Below, one piece after another: positions 3,973 through 22,177 of a DNA stretch of 32,924 nt. This DNA comes from Elusimicrobiota bacterium (GTDB taxonomy: Bacteria > Elusimicrobiota > Elusimicrobia > Elusimicrobiales > UBA9959): contig JAKLEK010000002.1 in assembly GCA_022703115.1 (NCBI GenBank), positions 1-32,924 of the forward strand, given 5' to 3'. The position numbers and the translations under genes are program-made. The notes beneath the pieces are model-generated. The model was not told where the DNA came from. It was given only the letters and a program-made list of their open reading frames with translations, and did not search any database. Position 1 is the first letter of the stretch. Each line of letters begins with the position of its first letter.

Positions 3973-5301
3973 CTAGAACATGGTGGCCGACGAGAAATTG
4001 AAATCTTTTATCTTGAGCGCCGGCGCCGAGACCGTGCCCCACAAGAGGAAAGATTCCAGCCGGTCGCCCACGGCCTCCACCCGATTGAACGCGTCCGCCA
4101 CGCTTTCGGTGAATCTCAAGTTCTTCACCGGATACGATATCCGCCCGTTCTCTATCATGAAAGTGCCGTTCCTCGTCATGCCCGTCATTTCCAGCGTTAT
4201 GGGTTTGAGAGGATTGCAATAATGGAAACTGGTAACGAGGATCCCTTTTTTCGTGGACCTTATCATTTCTTTCAGGGACCGGTCACCGGCGGCCATGACC
4301 AAATTGGAAGGGAGCGGTCCGTAGGTGTTCGGCATCGGCAGCGCGTGGCCGGTCGTCCTGACGCCGGCCTCGCGGGCCGTCTGGCGGTCGTGGGCCAGGT
4401 CCCGGGCCACTCCTTTGTCCACCAGCACGAGCCTGCGTTTCGGAACGCCTTCGTAATCGAACGGCATGCCGGCGCTAGGGCCTTCGGCCGCGTCGTCCGT
4501 TATGGTCAGCTTGTCGTTCAGGACTTTTTTGCCCAGGCGGCCGGAGACGAAGCTCTGGCCTTCCTGGTAGAAGCGGGCGCCGAAGCCGTATATGCCGAGG
4601 AAAAGAAGCAGGTTGGCGACCGCGGACGGCTCCAGTATTACCGTATAACGCCCTGGAGGAACGGCGCGCGGGCCGGCCGACCGCAACGCCTTGTCCAGGG
4701 CCGCGCGGTCAACGCGCTCGAAATCCAGGCGTCCGGAGTCGCAGGAGTAGTCTTGCGCCCAGCCGAAGCCGTCCCCGTGTCTGGCCGTTACGGAGTAGGC
4801 GGCGTAGGTCTCGCGGTGGAAGGCGCGCAGTCCCAGGCTGTTGGCGACCGTTACCATCCGCGTCCCGTTCTCAAAGGTCCCGAACCCGACCGCTCCGGCG
4901 CGCCGGCATTTTCCAGCGAAGGAAACCGCCCGCGCGGCCCTGTCCGACGGGGTCAGGTCCGCCGTGCCGGGAAAGAAGACGCTCCTGTTCTCCTTTAGTC
5001 CGGCCGGGCGCGGCAGCGGCAGCAGGCGCGGGTCTTTTTTCTGGGTCTTCAGGATCAGGTCCGCTCCGGAGAAAGCGGTCCGCAGGGAGGCCTCGGAGGG
5101 CTGGTTGAGAGAGAATTTGGCCACGCGGCCATTGTCCAGGACCCGGACGGATATCTCGGTGGCGGTATCCGCAACGTTCTGGGAGATCACGTTATCCGCG
5201 AAACGGGTCAGGGCGGAACATGTCGAAGTTACTATCACCTCGGTCCGGCGCCGGCCGGCCAGGCGGAAGATCCGGTCGCAGATGCGTTCGTGGGAAAGCA
5301 T
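3973..5301 (-). CDS. pmbA: PmbA/TldE-family protein (TldD partner, no HExxxH motif)
   Basis: The 442-aa ORF shows PmbA_TldD family similarity (e.g. LGLRAFHRETYAAYSV, SFHYCNPLKPITLEMTGMTRNGTFMIENG). It lies immediately upstream of tldD on the same strand. Confidence 0.85.
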   Translation of the reverse strand: MLSHERICDRIFRLAGRRRTEVIVTSTCSALTRFADNVISQNVADTATEISVRVLDNGRVAKFSLNQPSEASLRTAFSGADLILKTQKKDPRLLPLPRPAGLKENRSVFFPGTADLTPSDRAARAVSFAGKCRRAGAVGFGTFENGTRMVTVANSLGLRAFHRETYAAYSVTARHGDGFGWAQDYSCDSGRLDFERVDRAALDKALRSAGPRAVPPGRYTVILEPSAVANLLLFLGIYGFGARFYQEGQSFVSGRLGKKVLNDKLTITDDAAEGPSAGMPFDYEGVPKRRLVLVDKGVARDLAHDRQTAREAGVRTTGHALPMPNTYGPLPSNLVMAAGDRSLKEMIRSTKKGILVTSFHYCNPLKPITLEMTGMTRNGTFMIENGRISYPVKNLRFTESVADAFNRVEAVGDRLESFLLWGTVSAPALKIKDFNFSSATMF

Positions 5302-5330
5302 ACGTTCTGGGTCCTTACCCCTCCAGCGCG

Positions 5331-6252: not shown

Positions 6253-7416
6253 ATGAACAGGCAAAAAGCGGTAAAAGTGGTGGTATACGGCGGGATGTTC
6301 GACCCGCCGCATGAAGGGCATTTCTCGCTGATCAGGGCCGCCCTGCGGGATATCGGACCGGATATCCTCTATGTGGTGCCGGGCTTCGGCTCCCCTTTCA
6401 AAGAGCCGCCCGGGGCGGATTTCGCGGCCCGCGCCGCGATGGTCCGGAGCGGACTCAGGTCGCACGGGCTCGGCGGCGACGTCCGGATAAAGGTGCATCC
6501 GTACGAAGCGAGGCGCGGCAGGGTCACTTATACTTGGCGCACGATAGCCTTTTTCAGGAGACTGCATCCGGACGCTTCGCTATATTTCCTGATGGGTTCC
6601 GACTGTCTGGAGACGTTCCGGCGCTGGAAGAATTACCGCAGGATCCTGTCCTCGGCCCGGCTTCTGGTGGGGGTTCGCGCCGGTTTCTCTTTACGCGGCC
6701 CGGTAAGCCTTCCTTACAAGAGGCTCCGCGGCCGGTTCCCAGCCGTATCCTCCACGGCGCTGAAGGCCGGACTTTTTTCCGGCTCGCGGGTTCCGGGCCT
6801 GCCGGGTGACACGGCGAAGTATATCGCCGTCCGGGGGCTGTATCTGGGCGGCTTGAGGGCCCGCCTTAAGCGGAGCATGCCGCCGGCCCGGTTCAGGCAT
6901 ACTTTGGGGGTGGCCAGGCTGGCCCTGGCCCTTGCGCAAAGGTACGGGGCGGACCCGCGCAGGACGGCTCTCGCCGCGCTGCTCCATGACGTCGCGCGGG
7001 GACTGTCCAAAGAGGCCATGCTGGCGCGCGCCGCCGTCTGCCGCCCGGGCATGCCGGCCATGCGGGCGGCGACCCGGAACGCGCCGGTAGTTCTGCATGC
7101 ATACGCCGGCGCCGTCATAGCCGAGAAAAAATACGGGGTGAAGGACCCGGAGGTGCTGAGGGCCATAAGAGTCCACGCCTTCGGCCGGGCCTCCTCCGGC
7201 CTGCTGGACAAGATCATTTTCACCGCCGATCTCGCCGAAGCCGGAAGGAACTTCCCGGAAGCGCGCGCGATAAGGGAGCTGGCTTTCAAGGACCTGGACG
7301 CGGCGTACGCGGCGGCGCAGCGCGTTAAGCTCGCCCATGTCATAGGGCTCGGCGGCTGGGTTCATCCGGAAAGCGTGAAAGCATGGAACAGTCATCTAGA
7401 AAAAATCAGATCCTGA
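6253..7416 (+). CDS. nadD: Fusion of nicotinate-nucleotide adenylyltransferase (NadD) and a YqeK-type HD-domain hydrolase
   Basis: The ORF track frame is 6133-7416. I place the start at the ATG at 6253 (MNRQKAVKVVVYGGMFDPPHEGHFSL), which includes the NadD motif GxFDPxHxGH. The C-terminal half has the HD-domain signature RFRHTLGVARLALALAQRYG...LLHDVAR, typical of YqeK. No stop codon separates the two halves. Confidence 0.85.
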   Translation: MNRQKAVKVVVYGGMFDPPHEGHFSLIRAALRDIGPDILYVVPGFGSPFKEPPGADFAARAAMVRSGLRSHGLGGDVRIKVHPYEARRGRVTYTWRTIAFFRRLHPDASLYFLMGSDCLETFRRWKNYRRILSSARLLVGVRAGFSLRGPVSLPYKRLRGRFPAVSSTALKAGLFSGSRVPGLPGDTAKYIAVRGLYLGGLRARLKRSMPPARFRHTLGVARLALALAQRYGADPRRTALAALLHDVARGLSKEAMLARAAVCRPGMPAMRAATRNAPVVLHAYAGAVIAEKKYGVKDPEVLRAIRVHAFGRASSGLLDKIIFTADLAEAGRNFPEARAIRELAFKDLDAAYAAAQRVKLAHVIGLGGWVHPESVKAWNSHLEKIRS

Positions 7417-8273
7417 TCCTCGCGGCGGGCGGCCTGCTTGTCCTGGCCCTGGCCGCGGCGCATCACGGCTCCTCCGTGGCGGGGAGGCTGTCCTCCGGAC
7501 GGGACGTGGAACTGGTGCTGTTGAGCCGCGCCAGGCCGATGCTGTTCGTTTATCATCCTTTCTCCAGGACCGTCAACGCGATAAGGCTGCCGGCCAGGGC
7601 GGCGTCCGCCGCCGGAAGCGGAGCTTCGGCCTGTCAGCGGGCCGCGGAGGTGAGACGGTTGTTCTCCCGCTGGGGAGATACCCAGGCCGCGCCGGTGTAT
7701 ATAGAGTCGGCCGAGCCCGATCTGGAGGCTTTGGAGGAGCTGCTTAACGGCTGGCGGTCCAGGCCGGCGGGGCTTCTGCGGCTGTTAGGCGGACTGCGCG
7801 AACTGCGCCGCTCCGAAGCCACCGGCCTCACCGCCTACGAACTGCTGCTCGGAGCGCTGGAGCTCGTCCGCCTGGATTCCTCCCATTTCATAAAAGAGGA
7901 CCTGGAGCGGGTCCCTTCCGCCGGCCGAGCCGCGGAGGAGCCGCTGTCCGGGAGCCAGGTCTCCGCCGCCGCCGCGGCGCGCGTCGAGGTCCTGAACGCT
8001 TCCGGCAAGAGGGACCTGGCCGGCCGGGTCACCAAGTTCCTGCGCAAGAACGGCTACGACGTTATCAGCTTCGGCACCTATGCGGGTGTGGAAAGGCATA
8101 CAAAAATTGTAAACTGTTCCGGCGATATCGAGGCCGCGCGCGGCGTACGGTCGGCCCTCGGCCTTGGAGGACGGGAGATATATTCCAAGTCCGGAAAGGT
8201 CAATATCGCGGACGTAAGGGTGATACTCGGCGAGGATTTCGACGACAGCGTATTGAAACGGGGGGAGCCATGA
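7383..8273 (+). CDS. Membrane-anchored LytR_C domain protein
   Basis: The 296-aa ORF has an N-terminal TM helix (ILILAAGGLLVLALAAA). The C-terminus RVEVLNASGKRDLAGRVTKFLRKNGYDVISFGTYAG...ADVRVILGEDF matches the LytR C-terminal domain pattern. It overlaps the nadD-yqeK 3' end by 34 nt. Confidence 0.7.
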   Translation: MEQSSRKNQILILAAGGLLVLALAAAHHGSSVAGRLSSGRDVELVLLSRARPMLFVYHPFSRTVNAIRLPARAASAAGSGASACQRAAEVRRLFSRWGDTQAAPVYIESAEPDLEALEELLNGWRSRPAGLLRLLGGLRELRRSEATGLTAYELLLGALELVRLDSSHFIKEDLERVPSAGRAAEEPLSGSQVSAAAAARVEVLNASGKRDLAGRVTKFLRKNGYDVISFGTYAGVERHTKIVNCSGDIEAARGVRSALGLGGREIYSKSGKVNIADVRVILGEDFDDSVLKRGEP

Positions 8274-12897: not shown

Positions 12898-13263
12898 TCA
12901 CCGTCCGTATTGCCGCACTTTTGCGAGGATCGGGCCTATGATCTCCGGCGGCAGGGCGGCGCCGGCGCGTTCCAGCTCGTCCCCGACCCCGGCGGCGTTG
13001 AAGGAGCCGTCGGTTACGAGGATGGGGGATGATTTGTGGAGGCCGGGCCGGTCCTCCCCCCCGTCTATCCCGTCGTGCCGGTAGCCTTTGTCCCGGAGCC
13101 AGGTAAGGGCGCGGGGCTTGGACTTCAGGTCGTAGCAGAGCTGGAAGCCGTACATTCCCCCGGAAGGATCGAACCACACAATAAGATCGAAGCGCTCGTC
13201 GCTGAACCATCTCCGCGGCGGATCGCCCGGTATCTGTCTTACGTCCTTCATTTCGCGAAGCAT
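12898..13263 (-). CDS. Hypothetical small protein (121 aa) coupled to the adenosyltransferase gene
   Basis: The ORF track frame is 12898-13497. I place the start at the ATG at 13261-13263 (MLREMKDVRQIPGDPPRRWFSDERFDLIVWFDPSGGMYGFQLCYD...), which has a GGAGAGG RBS 4 nt upstream. Its stop lies 2 nt before the downstream ATG. I did not recognise a family. Confidence 0.55.
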   Translation of the reverse strand: MLREMKDVRQIPGDPPRRWFSDERFDLIVWFDPSGGMYGFQLCYDLKSKPRALTWLRDKGYRHDGIDGGEDRPGLHKSSPILVTDGSFNAAGVGDELERAGAALPPEIIGPILAKVRQYGR

Positions 13264-13399
13264 GACCTCTCCCCCGCCCGGTTCGGCCGGTGCGGGTATA
13301 GTGTATTTTAATAGCGGCCGTCGCACAAGCCCCGCTCCCCCTTTGGTTCGCCGGGCTGCCAGAAGAAGGATAGAGAGTCCGCGGCCACCGGAGGGAGCC

Positions 13400-13590
13400 T
13401 TCTGTCTGCCGGGGTTCTGTCGACCCTCGGCTGGTAATCCCGGGTACGCTGGGCTGCCGGGGGACACAGGGGTCGAAGGGCACGCTATCGGCCACACCGT
13501 GGCCGCGCTCCCACTCGGCCTCGCCGCTTACGTAAGGCTCGGCCTGCGTGACGGCCCTTTGACCCCTGTGTCCCCCGTCAACCGCTCCAA
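13400..13590 (-). ncRNA. Candidate structured RNA, copy A' (inverted paralog of copies A and B; 3' boundary uncertain)
   Basis: On the minus strand it begins TTGGAGCGG (reverse complement of 13582-13590). A 23-bp helix pairs 13459-13481 with 13554-13576, with one G-T/A-C position. Then comes CCGTCACGCAGGCCGAGCCTTACGTAAGCGGCGAGGCC, which aligns with copy B (CCGTCACGGAGGCCCGAACTTGCGTAAGCGAGAGGGCC). A hairpin GGCCAC-GGT-GTGGCC sits at 13490-13504. The strand is assigned only by homology orientation, because the helices would form on either strand. Confidence 0.4.
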
Positions 13591-13638
13591 CGGAGTAGCA
13601 CTATATTCCGTTCTGCTCTAGTTAAGGATGTTCCTTAT

Positions 13639-13885
13639 TTGGAGCGGGAGGCAGGGGAACCGGAAAAGCGGAAGCGTCCGGAGGCCGAGGCTTACGTAAG
13701 CGACGAGGACCGGGTGGACTACGCTATCCTGTTGTGTGTTCGTGGACACAACTTGGAACGCAGGCGCGCGTACGGTGTACGCGACGCCGGTTCCGCGTTC
13801 CGGGCCCCTGACAGGCCCCGCGCACCCAATTCGCGGCTGACCGTTAAACTCCAGCCAGGACCCCGAACCCGGGGGGCGTCAGGGC
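13639..13885 (+). ncRNA. Candidate structured RNA, copy A
   Basis: Five nested Watson-Crick helices join the 5' and 3' parts: 13644-48/13817-21, 13652-57/13805-10, 13660-65/13798-803, 13668-73/13791-96 and 13678-81/13787-90. All five are mirrored by different but complementary sequences in copy B. The 43-nt core at 13711-13753 is 40/43 identical to B. The palindrome CTTACGTAAG is at 13691-13700. A strong promoter for the next gene lies downstream of the element, so it is not simply the nifU-like leader. Confidence 0.5.
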
Positions 13886-20653: not shown

Positions 20654-20893
20654 TTATTTCTTTTTCTTGGTCTTGGCGTTGACCATCTTGGCGCGGCCGA
20701 TATCGCCGGCCTTGTCGAGATAATAGAGGTAGCCCGGCTCCTTCCTGACGCCGACCTTGGTCACCTTCTGGGGCTTTCCGCCCTTTTTCCCGCCGCGGGC
20801 CATCTTGGCGCGGGCGACGTCCCCGGCCTTGTCTATGTAATAGAGGAAACCGTCCTCTCTCTTTACGCCTACTTTCTGTACTTTTTCACCCAT
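20654..20893 (-). CDS. Small basic protein (79 aa) made of two tandem ~38-aa repeats
   Basis: KVQKVGVKREDGFLYYIDKAGDVARAKM is followed by KVTKVGVRKEPGYLYYLDKAGDIGRAKM and a KTKKKK tail. An AGGAGGA RBS lies 7 nt upstream of the ATG, and the gene has its own promoter and terminator. Confidence 0.7.
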   Translation of the reverse strand: MGEKVQKVGVKREDGFLYYIDKAGDVARAKMARGGKKGGKPQKVTKVGVRKEPGYLYYLDKAGDIGRAKMVNAKTKKKK

Positions 20894-20929: not shown

Positions 20930-20958
20930 ATTCTACACTATATCGTCGTAGAAATCAA
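20930..20958 (-). promoter_or_regulatory. Sigma-70-like promoter for the small repeat-protein gene
   Basis: On the minus strand, TTGATT (reverse complement of 20953-20958) is followed by a 17-nt spacer and TAGAAT (reverse complement of 20930-20935). The -10 element is about 37 nt upstream of the ATG. Confidence 0.5.
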
Positions 20959-20987
20959 TACCGGGCAAGAAGCAGAACGAGATATGG

Positions 20988-21271
20988 TTGGAGGGGAGGC
21001 CGGGGATTTGGCGGAGCAAACCGTCACGGAGGCCCGAACTTGCGTAAGCGAGAGGGCCGGGCGGACTACGCTATCCTGTCGTGTGTTCGTGGACGCAACT
21101 CGTGAGGGGGGGCTGGGCTATCGAAGGTTTGCTACGGACACTGTGCGAGGCCGTCTGAGGGCCATAGGCCTTGAAACGGCACTGGCATAGCCGAGACCCC
21201 GTGTTTGCGGAGCCAAACCCCGGACAGGCCCCCGAACCCTACGCGGAACTCTTGATGTCGCCCAGCCGGAC
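20988..21271 (+). ncRNA. Candidate structured RNA, copy B
   Basis: It begins TTGGAGGGG. The helices are 20993-96/21229-32, 21000-05/21218-23, 21007-12/21212-17, 21016-20/21204-08 and 21025-29/21199-203. The same AGG/ACAGG internal loop and the 4-nt bulge followed by AGGCC are present as in copy A. CTTGCGTAAG is at 21039-21048, and the core is at 21058-21100. A copy-specific inserted domain is closed by GGCTAT/ATAGCC (about 21115-21192). Confidence 0.5.
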
Positions 21272-21277
21272 GCGCGG

Positions 21278-22177
21278 TCAGAGATTTTCGGAGAAGAACT
21301 GGGAGACGCGCTTCTTGTAGACCTCGCCTCCGACCTCGGCGCACTTGCCGTGCGACGCCCCCGTTATGGTCCACAGCTGTTTCTTCTCCGATCCGCACAG
21401 GGAGAACAGTTCCTCCGCGTCCCGCAGCGGAACGATATCGTCGTGGTCGCCGTTTATCAGAAGCACCGGGGCCTTCACTCTGGATATATTGTGCGCCGGA
21501 CTGAACGGCTCCGGGTCCGCGCCCAGCTTCATCCTTACGAAGGCCAGCGTCACGGGCACCAGCGGAAAATACGGCACCCGCGTCCGTAGCCAGCTCCAGT
21601 TGGATATGACCCGCTTGTATGAAAGGAAGGTGTTCTCGGCCAGCAGGCATTTGATCTCCGGGTATTTGGCCGCCGCGAACACGGCCACCGAACCTCCCAT
21701 GGAGGAGCCGAAAACCGCCGTGCGCTCCATGGCGTGCGGCCGGTGGGCCTTGAGGAAATCGTAAGCCGCGTCGAAGTCCCGGGTCTCCAGATAGCCCACG
21801 CTGGACAACGTGCCGCCGCTTTCCCCCGAGCCGCGGAAGTCGAAATAGAACAGATTAAAGCCCTTCTCGGCCAGGAACCAGGTGTCCCGGAGCAGGTCGC
21901 CGCGGTTGACCCCCATGCCGTGGCACAGGATTATGGTCTTATCCGTTTCCCCCCCTTCCGCGGGGATGAACCAGCTCTTCAGCGTCAGGCCGTCGGAGGT
22001 GGGAAGATCTATGGTCTCGTAGGCCAGGCCGAACTGGTCGGGGTGTACGGTCACCGGGGTGCGCCGTTTGGGCGGACGTATTATGGAGTAGCTTTTGAAG
22101 TACGCCGTCACCAGGGTGGCGGCGGCCAGGCCAAGGGCAGAAAATAAAGACCAGTTCAGGATTTCCGCGGAGTTCAT
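21278..22177 (-). CDS. Membrane-anchored alpha/beta hydrolase
   Basis: The 299-aa ORF has an N-terminal TM helix, the nucleophile elbow GSSMGGS, and candidate catalytic Asp/His contexts INGDHDDIVP and GASHG. Confidence 0.8.
   Translation of the reverse strand: MNSAEILNWSLFSALGLAAATLVTAYFKSYSIIRPPKRRTPVTVHPDQFGLAYETIDLPTSDGLTLKSWFIPAEGGETDKTIILCHGMGVNRGDLLRDTWFLAEKGFNLFYFDFRGSGESGGTLSSVGYLETRDFDAAYDFLKAHRPHAMERTAVFGSSMGGSVAVFAAAKYPEIKCLLAENTFLSYKRVISNWSWLRTRVPYFPLVPVTLAFVRMKLGADPEPFSPAHNISRVKAPVLLINGDHDDIVPLRDAEELFSLCGSEKKQLWTITGASHGKCAEVGGEVYKKRVSQFFSENL

Follow-up and report, generated by a model that had tools for sequence, protein, structure and literature searches.

The locus studied here raises the question of whether a strongly folded intergenic element is a gene for a structured RNA or a repeat that spreads as DNA. 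The window analyzed is a stretch of 32,924 nucleotides from an Elusimicrobiota bacterium (assembly GCA_022703115.1, contig JAKLEK010000002.1), and the element in question, copy B, is a strongly folded sequence of 250–280 bases in which a long closing rod surrounds a multi-branch junction in the minimum free energy (MFE) fold. A first-pass annotation, made from the letters of the window, had described a conserved scaffold with a lineage-specific inserted domain and considered this pattern typical of structured RNAs. We think it somewhat more probable than the contrary that copy B belongs to a new Elusimicrobiales family of intergenic repeats that are modular and form hairpins, comparable to ERIC, BOX, and the MITEs (transposable elements of miniature size with inverted repeats). 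The family is absent from Rfam and is, in kind, like known bacterial intergenic repeats. The evidence consists of empty orthologous sites, non-homologous sites occupied in both orientations, truncated, nested, and tandem copies, and the shuffling of modules; it also includes the lack of dedicated-gene signals, of an Rfam match, and of a clear strand signature.

Copy B and the empty spacers of its relatives

Copy B is on the plus strand in a 384-bp spacer. Its end is 6 bp from the stop codon (21278–21280) of a minus-strand alpha/beta hydrolase gene, and on the other side the −35 box of a small-protein promoter is 29 nt from its TTGGAG start. The earlier description of the element as antisense to the local genes and ending about 30 nt from that promoter was accurate.

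The first-pass annotation had proposed to look at the same spacer in related genomes, and had named conserved coding flanks around a nonconserved spacer as the outcome that would speak against it. Eight loci could be compared; as the two contigs of L026/L027 are identical, and likewise those of L030/L031, they correspond to six distinct sequences. All eight kept the hydrolase gene and the small-protein gene with its promoter, and in all eight the element was missing from the spacer. The flanks are thus kept and the spacer is not, which is the adverse outcome named beforehand. The spacer measured 127 bp in L036 (hydrolase 86% identical to that of the window), 94–115 bp in L026/L027 (84%), 163 bp in L037 (82%), 71 bp in L030/L031 (79%), about 70 bp in L016, and 416 bp, with unrelated repeats, in L035 (74%). 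The small-protein promoter was kept as TTGCAT-N17-TAGAAT/TAAAAT/TAAGAT in L016, L026, L030, L035, L036, and L037. No target-site duplication was evident around B when it was compared with the empty sites.

The spacer shared by copies A and C, two further members of the family in the window, gave a comparable result. This DUF/PduO-NifU spacer has 760 bp in the window versus 122–189 bp in L038, L039/L040, and a third contig (143 bp). L038/L028 and L039 have the short spacer, yet they carry family members at other loci. In L016, a family member was found 300 bp away from the B site; it lies in sense, on the strand opposite to B, with the terminator of the small-protein gene on one side and folD on the other. 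Copies were gained at new intergenic sites, and lost or reshuffled, lineage by lineage and on short evolutionary timescales. Copy B is shown by this comparison to be an insertion in the lineage of the window, placed directly after the end of the hydrolase gene and just upstream of the small-protein promoter with its −35 box. It behaves like a small mobile DNA repeat rather than a conserved RNA gene, because its family is patchy and mosaic and because its insertion is confined to one lineage.

At the site of B in L026 (6078–6130), which among relatives with long contigs is the closest, a piece of about 25 nt that resembles the reverse complement of the tail (GTTCCGC..GTTCGCGGCGGGGCC) lies inside the hydrolase terminator. 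This piece of L026/L027 could be what is left of a copy since lost, or it could be the seed that gave rise to the tail. In L035 (3404–3819), tandem GTTGTAGCGTTATAGCGTTATGGCGTT and a long CGCAGAG-rich palindrome occupy the spacer; unrelated repeats thus seem to land at this spot.

The surroundings are an ordinary Elusimicrobiales housekeeping stretch that contains argS, nadA, folD, glyA, accC, and genes for a PduO-type adenosyltransferase and a nifU-like protein, among others. The small protein next to copy B (20654–20893, minus strand) has 79 amino acids, is rich in lysine, and consists of two repeats of about 39 residues with the motif G(F/Y)LYY(I/L)DKAGD(V/I)(A/G)RAKM. Its gene is conserved beside folD across Elusimicrobia with a strongly conserved promoter, and the protein had no match in Pfam, NCBIfam, or the PDB. 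A second protein without a Pfam or NCBIfam match, of 121 amino acids (12898–13263, minus strand), is conserved beside the PduO-type adenosyltransferase gene in the relatives L019 and L039.

Shuffled modules and mosaic copies

The TTGGAG start, rod, hairpin, core, tail, and extra domain that had been described in copy B were all read from the sequence where they had been placed (Table 1). Copies A and B have in common TTGGAG, a long rod, a CTTGCGTAAG-type hairpin, a core of 38–49 nt, and the tail ACAGGCCCC(G)CGAACCC. They contain a 49-nt direct repeat with 92% identity, and BLAST aligned them over 116 nt with 81% identity (E = 2e-22), a likeness far above chance. The remark that A lacks the extra domain holds for that domain itself, module M4, which is missing from A; in its place A has a different hairpin of 29 nt. 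The earlier description had omitted a third copy, copy C (13437–13590, minus strand), which contains module M2 (a CTTACGTAAG hairpin) and module M3 (GGCCACGGTGTGGCC-GATAGCGT) and lacks the core, module M1. Searches with nhmmer and a covariance model found no copies in the window beyond A, B, and C. The hairpin CTTGCGTAAG has a single exact match in the window, that of copy B, and palindromes with one mismatch at 13527 and 13691.

Outside the window, further copies were found in at least 15 loci. An exact scan with the core retrieved a single species genome, an Elusimicrobiales metagenome-assembled genome (MAG; L009), together with 15 contigs of metagenomes sampled from activated sludge, digesters, and sediments; two metagenome contigs, L011 and L015, carry identical copies of B. 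Loci fetched around orthologues of the flanking genes added copies in two relatives at the level of genera, L028/L038 and L039, with three loci in L028 and two in L039. The family was seen only in Elusimicrobiales metagenomes and MAGs, at intergenic, non-homologous sites and in both orientations. A phage or plasmid origin was rejected, as the core and the C-type junction were missing from IMG/VR and BLAST against plasmids and phages gave no match.

The unit has conserved termini, (T)TGGAGCGGG at the 5′ end and CAGGMCCCGCGAACC at the 3′ end (family consensus CAGGMCCCGCGAACCC), in which GCGGG pairs with CCCGC. Between them, a long rod closes a multi-way junction with the interchangeable modules M1–M4. 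The terminal helix, GCGGG/CCCGC in A and most family members, is GGGG/CCCC in copy B; the 5′ strand is short of one C and the 3′ strand of one G, as if a complete base pair had been deleted. The 5′ flank of B, GCAGAACGAGATATGG, is probably part of the repeat unit, because copy C has a homologous 5′ flank, GCAGAACGGAATATAGTG. Behind the element, the tail-like motif CAGNMCCNGCGAACC is reiterated two to three times in C and twice in A.

Among the modules, the first 23–25 nt of M1 are invariant across genera. No helix within M1 covaries; the module could form a 4-bp GUGU/ACAC stem at most, any extension of which lacks covariation support. M2 is a CTTRCGYAAG hairpin, also found in A, C, L024, L028, and L039. 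In M3, a hairpin precedes GATAGCGT, which is inverse to the ACGCTATC that M1 contains. M4 (about 77 nt) had been called lineage-specific, a view that does not agree with its shuffled recurrence in no fewer than five further copies (L018, L019, L020, and L025, with the inner hairpin in L016). It is hosted by A/B-type scaffolds (B, L018, and L019), by C-type scaffolds (L020 and L025), and, as a scaffold-less inner hairpin, by L016. A K-turn in this inner hairpin was considered and discarded, since the internal loop varies on its 3′ strand (UGAA, CGAA, UGUU, UGUCA).

The interiors of the units are mosaics of these modules. M1 is on A and not on C in the window, and on C and not on A in L024; inversion of a phase-variable A–C segment was rejected, as the module order of L024 cannot be derived from that of the window by inversion between the M2 repeats. 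Copies truncated at the 5′ end occur in L021/L023 and L028 (7130–7200). In L028 (6680–6950), an element of about 270 bp with perfect terminal inverted repeats of 32 bp (GTGTAGCGTCTCGCAAATGGCTTTACTTTTGA) replaces the core cassette of a family copy; this nested element looks like another MITE, unrelated to its host. The repeated unit of L028 has about 350 nt and carries, at the 5′ end, an inverted and imperfect version of the tail motif. Three loci have head-to-head doublets whose spacer is conserved; the 48-bp spacer between C and A recurs at two more pairs, in L020 and L024, where the core is on the C partner. Metagenome contigs break inside or beside copies in L019, L020, L024, and L025.

Scaffold-less M1 mini-units abut tRNA-Ser in L009 (5385–5516 and 5517–5606) and L022 (oriented, about 7925–8150). 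Those of L009 are two tandem 66-nt units, each with a GCGGAG start that resembles the complement of the tRNA 3′ end, and that of L022 has on both sides a 13-nt direct repeat, GGAGAGGTGTGTG, identical to the 5′ end of tRNA-Ser. These arrangements may be an insertion signature or may point to a tRNA-derived origin of the TGGAG start.

The positions of the copies bear on the proposal that they are cis-acting leaders, that is, riboswitch- or attenuator-like 5′ untranslated regions (UTRs) or general mRNA-stability elements selected for regulating the downstream gene. Many copies are indeed in sense and near a gene start (A/nifU-like, C/DUF gene, L012/rfbD, L014/dehydrogenase E1, and L016/folD, and likewise upstream in L018, L021, and L024), and in L012 the tail is followed by a hairpin and a U-run that overlaps the Shine-Dalgarno region. 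Copy B, in contrast, points at a convergent gene's 3′ end, with no sense-oriented gene to regulate, and the L025 and L028 copies are not in sense with the next gene. Copy A precedes the promoter of nifU itself (TTGAGG-17-TATAAT) and is therefore outside the nifU 5′ UTR. The downstream genes share no pathway, and the elements are missing upstream of the orthologous genes in relatives. Neither the constant position and orientation nor the functionally related genes that mark a riboswitch or leader were found, and we consider this the least probable of the explanations weighed here. Beside this, the 5′ unit extension in L028 has a promoter-like TTAACA-17-TATGAT opposite to the element strand (7050–7078 and 5290–5320, plus strand) that faces the next downstream gene; judging from these motifs, the family element might donate an outward promoter in L028.

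Table 1. Coordinates of copies A, B, and C and of associated features in the window
Feature	Position	Strand	Details
Copy B	20988..21271	+	Limits as set by the first-pass annotation; TTGGAG first, CCAGCCGGAC last at 21271
Copy B, folded element proper	20988–21239	+	
Copy B, weakly conserved 3′ extension AACTCTTGATG...CCAGCCGGAC	to 21271	+	
Copy B, 5′ flank GCAGAACGAGATATGG	20965..20987	+	
Copy B, TTGGAG start	20988–20993	+	
Copy B, rod 5′ arm	21000..21021	+	CCGGGG 21000–21005, TTTGGC 21007–21012, GCAAAC 21016–21021
Copy B, module M2, CTTGCGTAAG hairpin	21039..21048	+	GCUU/AAGC-type stem, RCGY tetraloop
Copy B, module M1 (core), GGACTACGCTATCCTGTCGTGTGTTCGTGGACGCAACT	21063..21100	+	
Copy B, module M4 (extra domain)	21116..21192	+	77 nt; closing helix GGCTAT 21116–21121/ATAGCC 21187–21192
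Copy B, M4 inner helix	21150–21154 with 21176–21180	+	GCCGT pairs with ACGGC
Copy B, M4 apical hairpin	21160–21170	+	GGCC-ATA-GGCC
Copy B, rod 3′ arm	21203..21223	+	GTTTGC, GCCAAA, CCCCGG; MFE fold, pair counts
Copy B, tail motif ACAGGCCCCCGAACCC	21224..21239	+	CCCC forms terminal helix P1 with 5′ GGGG
Terminal-helix strands compared, B versus A	20994–20997 versus 13644–13648; 21224–21239 versus 13821–13837		
Small tandem-repeat protein promoter	20930..20958	−	TTGATT-17-TAGAAT; outside the element, marks the edge of the insertion site
Copy A	13639..13870	+	TTGGAG 13639–13644, M2 13691–13700, M1 13716–13753
Copy A, own 29-nt hairpin	13761–13790	+	At the site of M4 in B
Copy A, tail motifs	~13821–13837; second ends ~13870	+	First is ACAGGCCCCGCGCACCC
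Copy C	13437..13590	−	Head-to-head with A; TTGGAG at 13590–13585; 30-bp rod
Spacer between divergent TTGGAG starts of C and A	13591..13638		48 bp
Copy C, 3′ region	13300..13436	−	Three reiterated tail-like motifs, GGCAGCCCAGCGTACCC, GACAGAACCCCGG, GGCAGCCCGGCGAACC

Conserved folding and the strand question

A folded scaffold that is conserved while its inserted domain varies had been part of the earlier description, and covarying helices in two alignments bear this out. Copies A and B were aligned with MAFFT, and rod covariation was evaluated on a hand-registered alignment of A, B, and L018, in which 95.6% of the cells were paired. Eight of the 18 rod pairs had changed on both sides and were still paired, compared with 2.6 ± 1.4 in shuffles (0/500 reached 8) and 0–3 in slid controls. 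The second alignment, analyzed with RNAalifold, comprised six C-type scaffolds from three genera with the cassettes excised. It had 51 predicted pairs and 94% of cells paired, with double-sided changes in 16 of the 51 pairs, against 7.3 ± 1.8 in shuffles (0/500 reached 16) and 1–3 in slid controls. Three pairs of the M4 apical stem also covary. The junction and loop sequences were almost invariant across the three genera, and the stems differed with compensation. The folded scaffold is genuinely conserved.

The covariance model derived from the C-type alignment (R1) gave 143.7 bits for copy C and 47 bits for L012. It matched copy A over its full length (28 bits, E = 5e-4) and copy B in the M2 region alone (14 bits). 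Neither this type of search nor nhmmer detected a family member in six other related loci (about 95 kb).

In quasipalindromes, one arm is corrected to match the other by template switching during replication, which is an established mechanism, and transposases that recognize hairpins likewise select for pairing. Because both processes also keep the arms complementary, the compensatory changes do not decide between RNA and DNA.

Transcription signals and strand asymmetry bear on the alternative of small RNA (sRNA) genes. According to this explanation, the copies would be a mobile or duplicating family of paralogous small structured RNA genes of about 150–300 nt, with B an independently transcribed sRNA gene in antisense orientation. 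Each would combine a 5′/3′ closing helix and a rod with a conserved junction for binding a protein or RNA partner, its modules would serve as optional domains at the periphery, and the genes would possibly be carried on a mobile unit. Such a family is unlikely in our judgment, though it is the strongest of the alternatives.

Simple consensus scans, which weak signals may escape, found no sigma-70 promoter or intrinsic terminator in element orientation at A, B, or C, whereas the neighboring genes have clear sigma-70 promoters. There was no sigma-70 match in element orientation within the 5′ flank of B (20965–20987), none on either strand of the spacer between C and A (13591–13638), and no consistent promoter or terminator for the L028 and L039 copies. 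A sigma-54 promoter at TGGAGCGG was rejected by eye, as the spacing does not fit. Neither a promoter and terminator of its own nor conservation at the orthologous locus, as expected of an sRNA gene, was thus found for the element; the orthologous spacers of all relatives examined lack it. In favor of sRNA genes, an A/T-rich hexamer directly precedes TGGAG at its 5′ side in many copies.

The strand tests gave equivocal results. In the MFE folds of 10 copies, there were 58 G·U pairs on the element strand versus 52 on the opposite strand, and seven single A·C mismatches on each. The element strand was at least as stable as its complement in all 11 copies, which would favor an RNA; this bias is explained by the excess of G on that strand (702 G, 575 C). 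The z-scores against shuffled sequences differed in strand preference, with −1.7 (plus) versus −0.3 (minus) for B and −1.6 (plus) versus −3.3 (minus) for A. There was no clear strand-specific RNA signature. With the spacer empty in the eight relative loci and without promoter or terminator, the step from this pattern to a structured-RNA gene, taken in the first-pass annotation, is not supported.

Searches for known RNAs were also negative. Rfam 15 gave no match in the whole window at the gathering threshold, and only chance-level miRNA and xrRNA matches at E ≤ 10 for both element regions and at E ≤ 1 for seven related loci. No tRNA or tmRNA was detected in the window. Protein coding was rejected, since the frame of the core changes between A, B, and L009 and conservation extends over every codon position. 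The presence or absence of M1 on otherwise intact scaffolds, and the truncated, nested, and tandem copies, argue further against sRNA genes.

Several observations nevertheless weigh against an intergenic repeat, and part of them favors sRNA genes. The conservation pattern, with invariant junctions and loops and compensated stems across three genera and between A and B, is that expected of a functional RNA. In the C-type alignment, G·U cells outnumbered A·C cells 16 to 7 in element orientation, a weak hint of an RNA strand. Terminator-like hairpins end some copies behind the tail in element orientation (L012, by eye, and a weak one in L028). The copy number per genome looks low, with about three in 33 kb and about five distinct core-bearing loci in the richest metagenome, and the family is therefore unlike the classical swarms of REP or MITE elements. 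No target-site duplication was found at the ends of two L028 units, and no transposase was found near any copy, either in the window or in the fetched loci.

A more specific form of the RNA explanation, which we hold to be slightly less probable again, is a new, Elusimicrobiales-restricted class of mobile modular structured RNA, of 150–300 nt, with a rod and a three-way junction and with the 25-nt core of M1 as the functional site. M1 would then bind a protein, or be guide-like or catalytic, the other modules would be swappable, and B would be an active gene in antisense orientation beside the small-protein promoter. If this minority view is true, the window contains a structured RNA that is mobile and uncatalogued, with exceptional conservation of a 25-nt core, and worth experiments.

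Proposed place among known intergenic repeats

ERIC (IRU) elements of Enterobacteriaceae and Vibrio are imperfect palindromes of 127 nt that are intergenic, have no known transposase, and are usually co-transcribed with their neighbors. The Elusimicrobiales family belongs with them as a behavioral class, not as a sequence family: both are long imperfect palindromes that form a long hairpin, are strictly intergenic in either orientation, and are patchy, with very uneven copy numbers between related genomes and presence or absence at orthologous sites. In both, insertion of additional blocks (about 70 nt) at set internal positions gives rise to size variants, neither has a known associated transposase, and co-transcription with neighboring genes would be usual. 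The family differs from ERIC in that it shows no sequence similarity to it, occurs in a different phylum, and has units of 150–350 nt instead of 127 nt, with a multi-way junction, several exchangeable modules, non-palindromic conserved termini, and a reiterated 3′ tail motif. ERIC is mentioned in two of the articles consulted (PMC3184786, PMC10969869).

The BOX elements of Streptococcus pneumoniae (PMC3049150) are alike in that a few boxes occur in variable number and order, with a stable predicted structure, at intergenic and strain-variable sites. BOX is a linear boxA-boxB(n)-boxC with more than 100 copies per genome, whereas the modules of the family are inside a closing rod and its copy number seems low; there is no sequence similarity.

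With MITEs (PMC10969869, PMC3184786), the family shares short, non-coding, multi-copy, and intergenic units, in which reading frames are not conserved across the core. Insertion polymorphism is also shared, the B site being empty in eight loci and the A/C site short in three relatives, as are truncated and nested copies. The ends resemble inverted repeats, in the rod arms of all copies, in GCGGG/CCCGC, and in the imperfect inverted tail motif of the long L028 unit, and may correspond to terminal inverted repeats. In contrast to MITEs, no parent insertion sequence and no target-site duplication were found for the family, the sole case being the 13-nt direct repeat at the M1 mini-unit of L022. 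Its internal junctions are more conserved than its arms, which is the reverse of the usual MITE, and A and B are about 75%–80% identical, whereas MITE copies in a genome are nearly identical.

A stricter assignment, to REP/REPIN elements, would make the copies short tagged palindromes (GTAG/CGTC) and inverted doublets moved as single-stranded DNA by a RAYT, an IS200/IS605-type Y1 transposase. The GTAG and CGTC tags define two REP superfamilies (PMC3733652), and M1 has CTAC, the complement of GTAG, while the M4 inner hairpin and the C-type arm have CGTC beside a stem-loop. The head-to-head doublets with a conserved short spacer at three loci resemble REPINs (PMC3116915), and covarying stems with constant loops and tags, as well as long persistence in a lineage, are likewise known from REP/REPIN-RAYT systems (PMC3116915, PMC3337134, PMC3733652). 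The scale and architecture are different, as the units are multi-branch structures of 150–350 nt and not stem-loops of 20–40 nt with a terminal tag. The position of the tags relative to the hairpin departs from the REP layout, the copy number appears low and not high, and about 330 kb of related sequence yielded no RAYT gene. We regard this assignment as improbable.

Compared with 6S, SRP, and Y RNA and multi-copy sRNA families, the copies are alike in their paired 5′ and 3′ ends, their rod with conserved internal loops, and their paralogy; unlike them, they gave no match to these Rfam models at E ≤ 10, have no promoter or terminator, and are not syntenic. Kinship with the SRP (4.5S) RNA or its Alu domain, considered for a suspected resemblance of tail and core to the E. 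coli 4.5S RNA, was rejected, since no SRP covariance model matched.

For the family of intergenic repeats that we favor, the elements would spread as non-autonomous DNA, through a trans-acting transposase or recombinase or through template-switch replication. The complementarity of the rod could be kept at the DNA level if a hairpin or cruciform substrate is selected for, or if template switching corrects the quasipalindrome, and no RNA product would be needed to account for the family. Copy B would most likely be transcribed only passively, with its reverse complement as the hydrolase mRNA's 3′ UTR; there, the GC-rich rod could stabilize the 3′ end or dampen read-through into the small-protein/folD unit. 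A literature search on repeats and noncoding RNAs of Elusimicrobia found no relevant description.

If copy B does belong to such a family, a phylum-specific and structurally elaborate member is added to the bacterial intergenic repeats. The case also carries a warning: covariation and a conserved scaffold with inserted domains are not sufficient to identify an RNA gene, as palindromic DNA repeats look alike. For the Elusimicrobiales themselves, the family marks hotspots of strain-level rearrangement and of assembly breaks in their MAGs.

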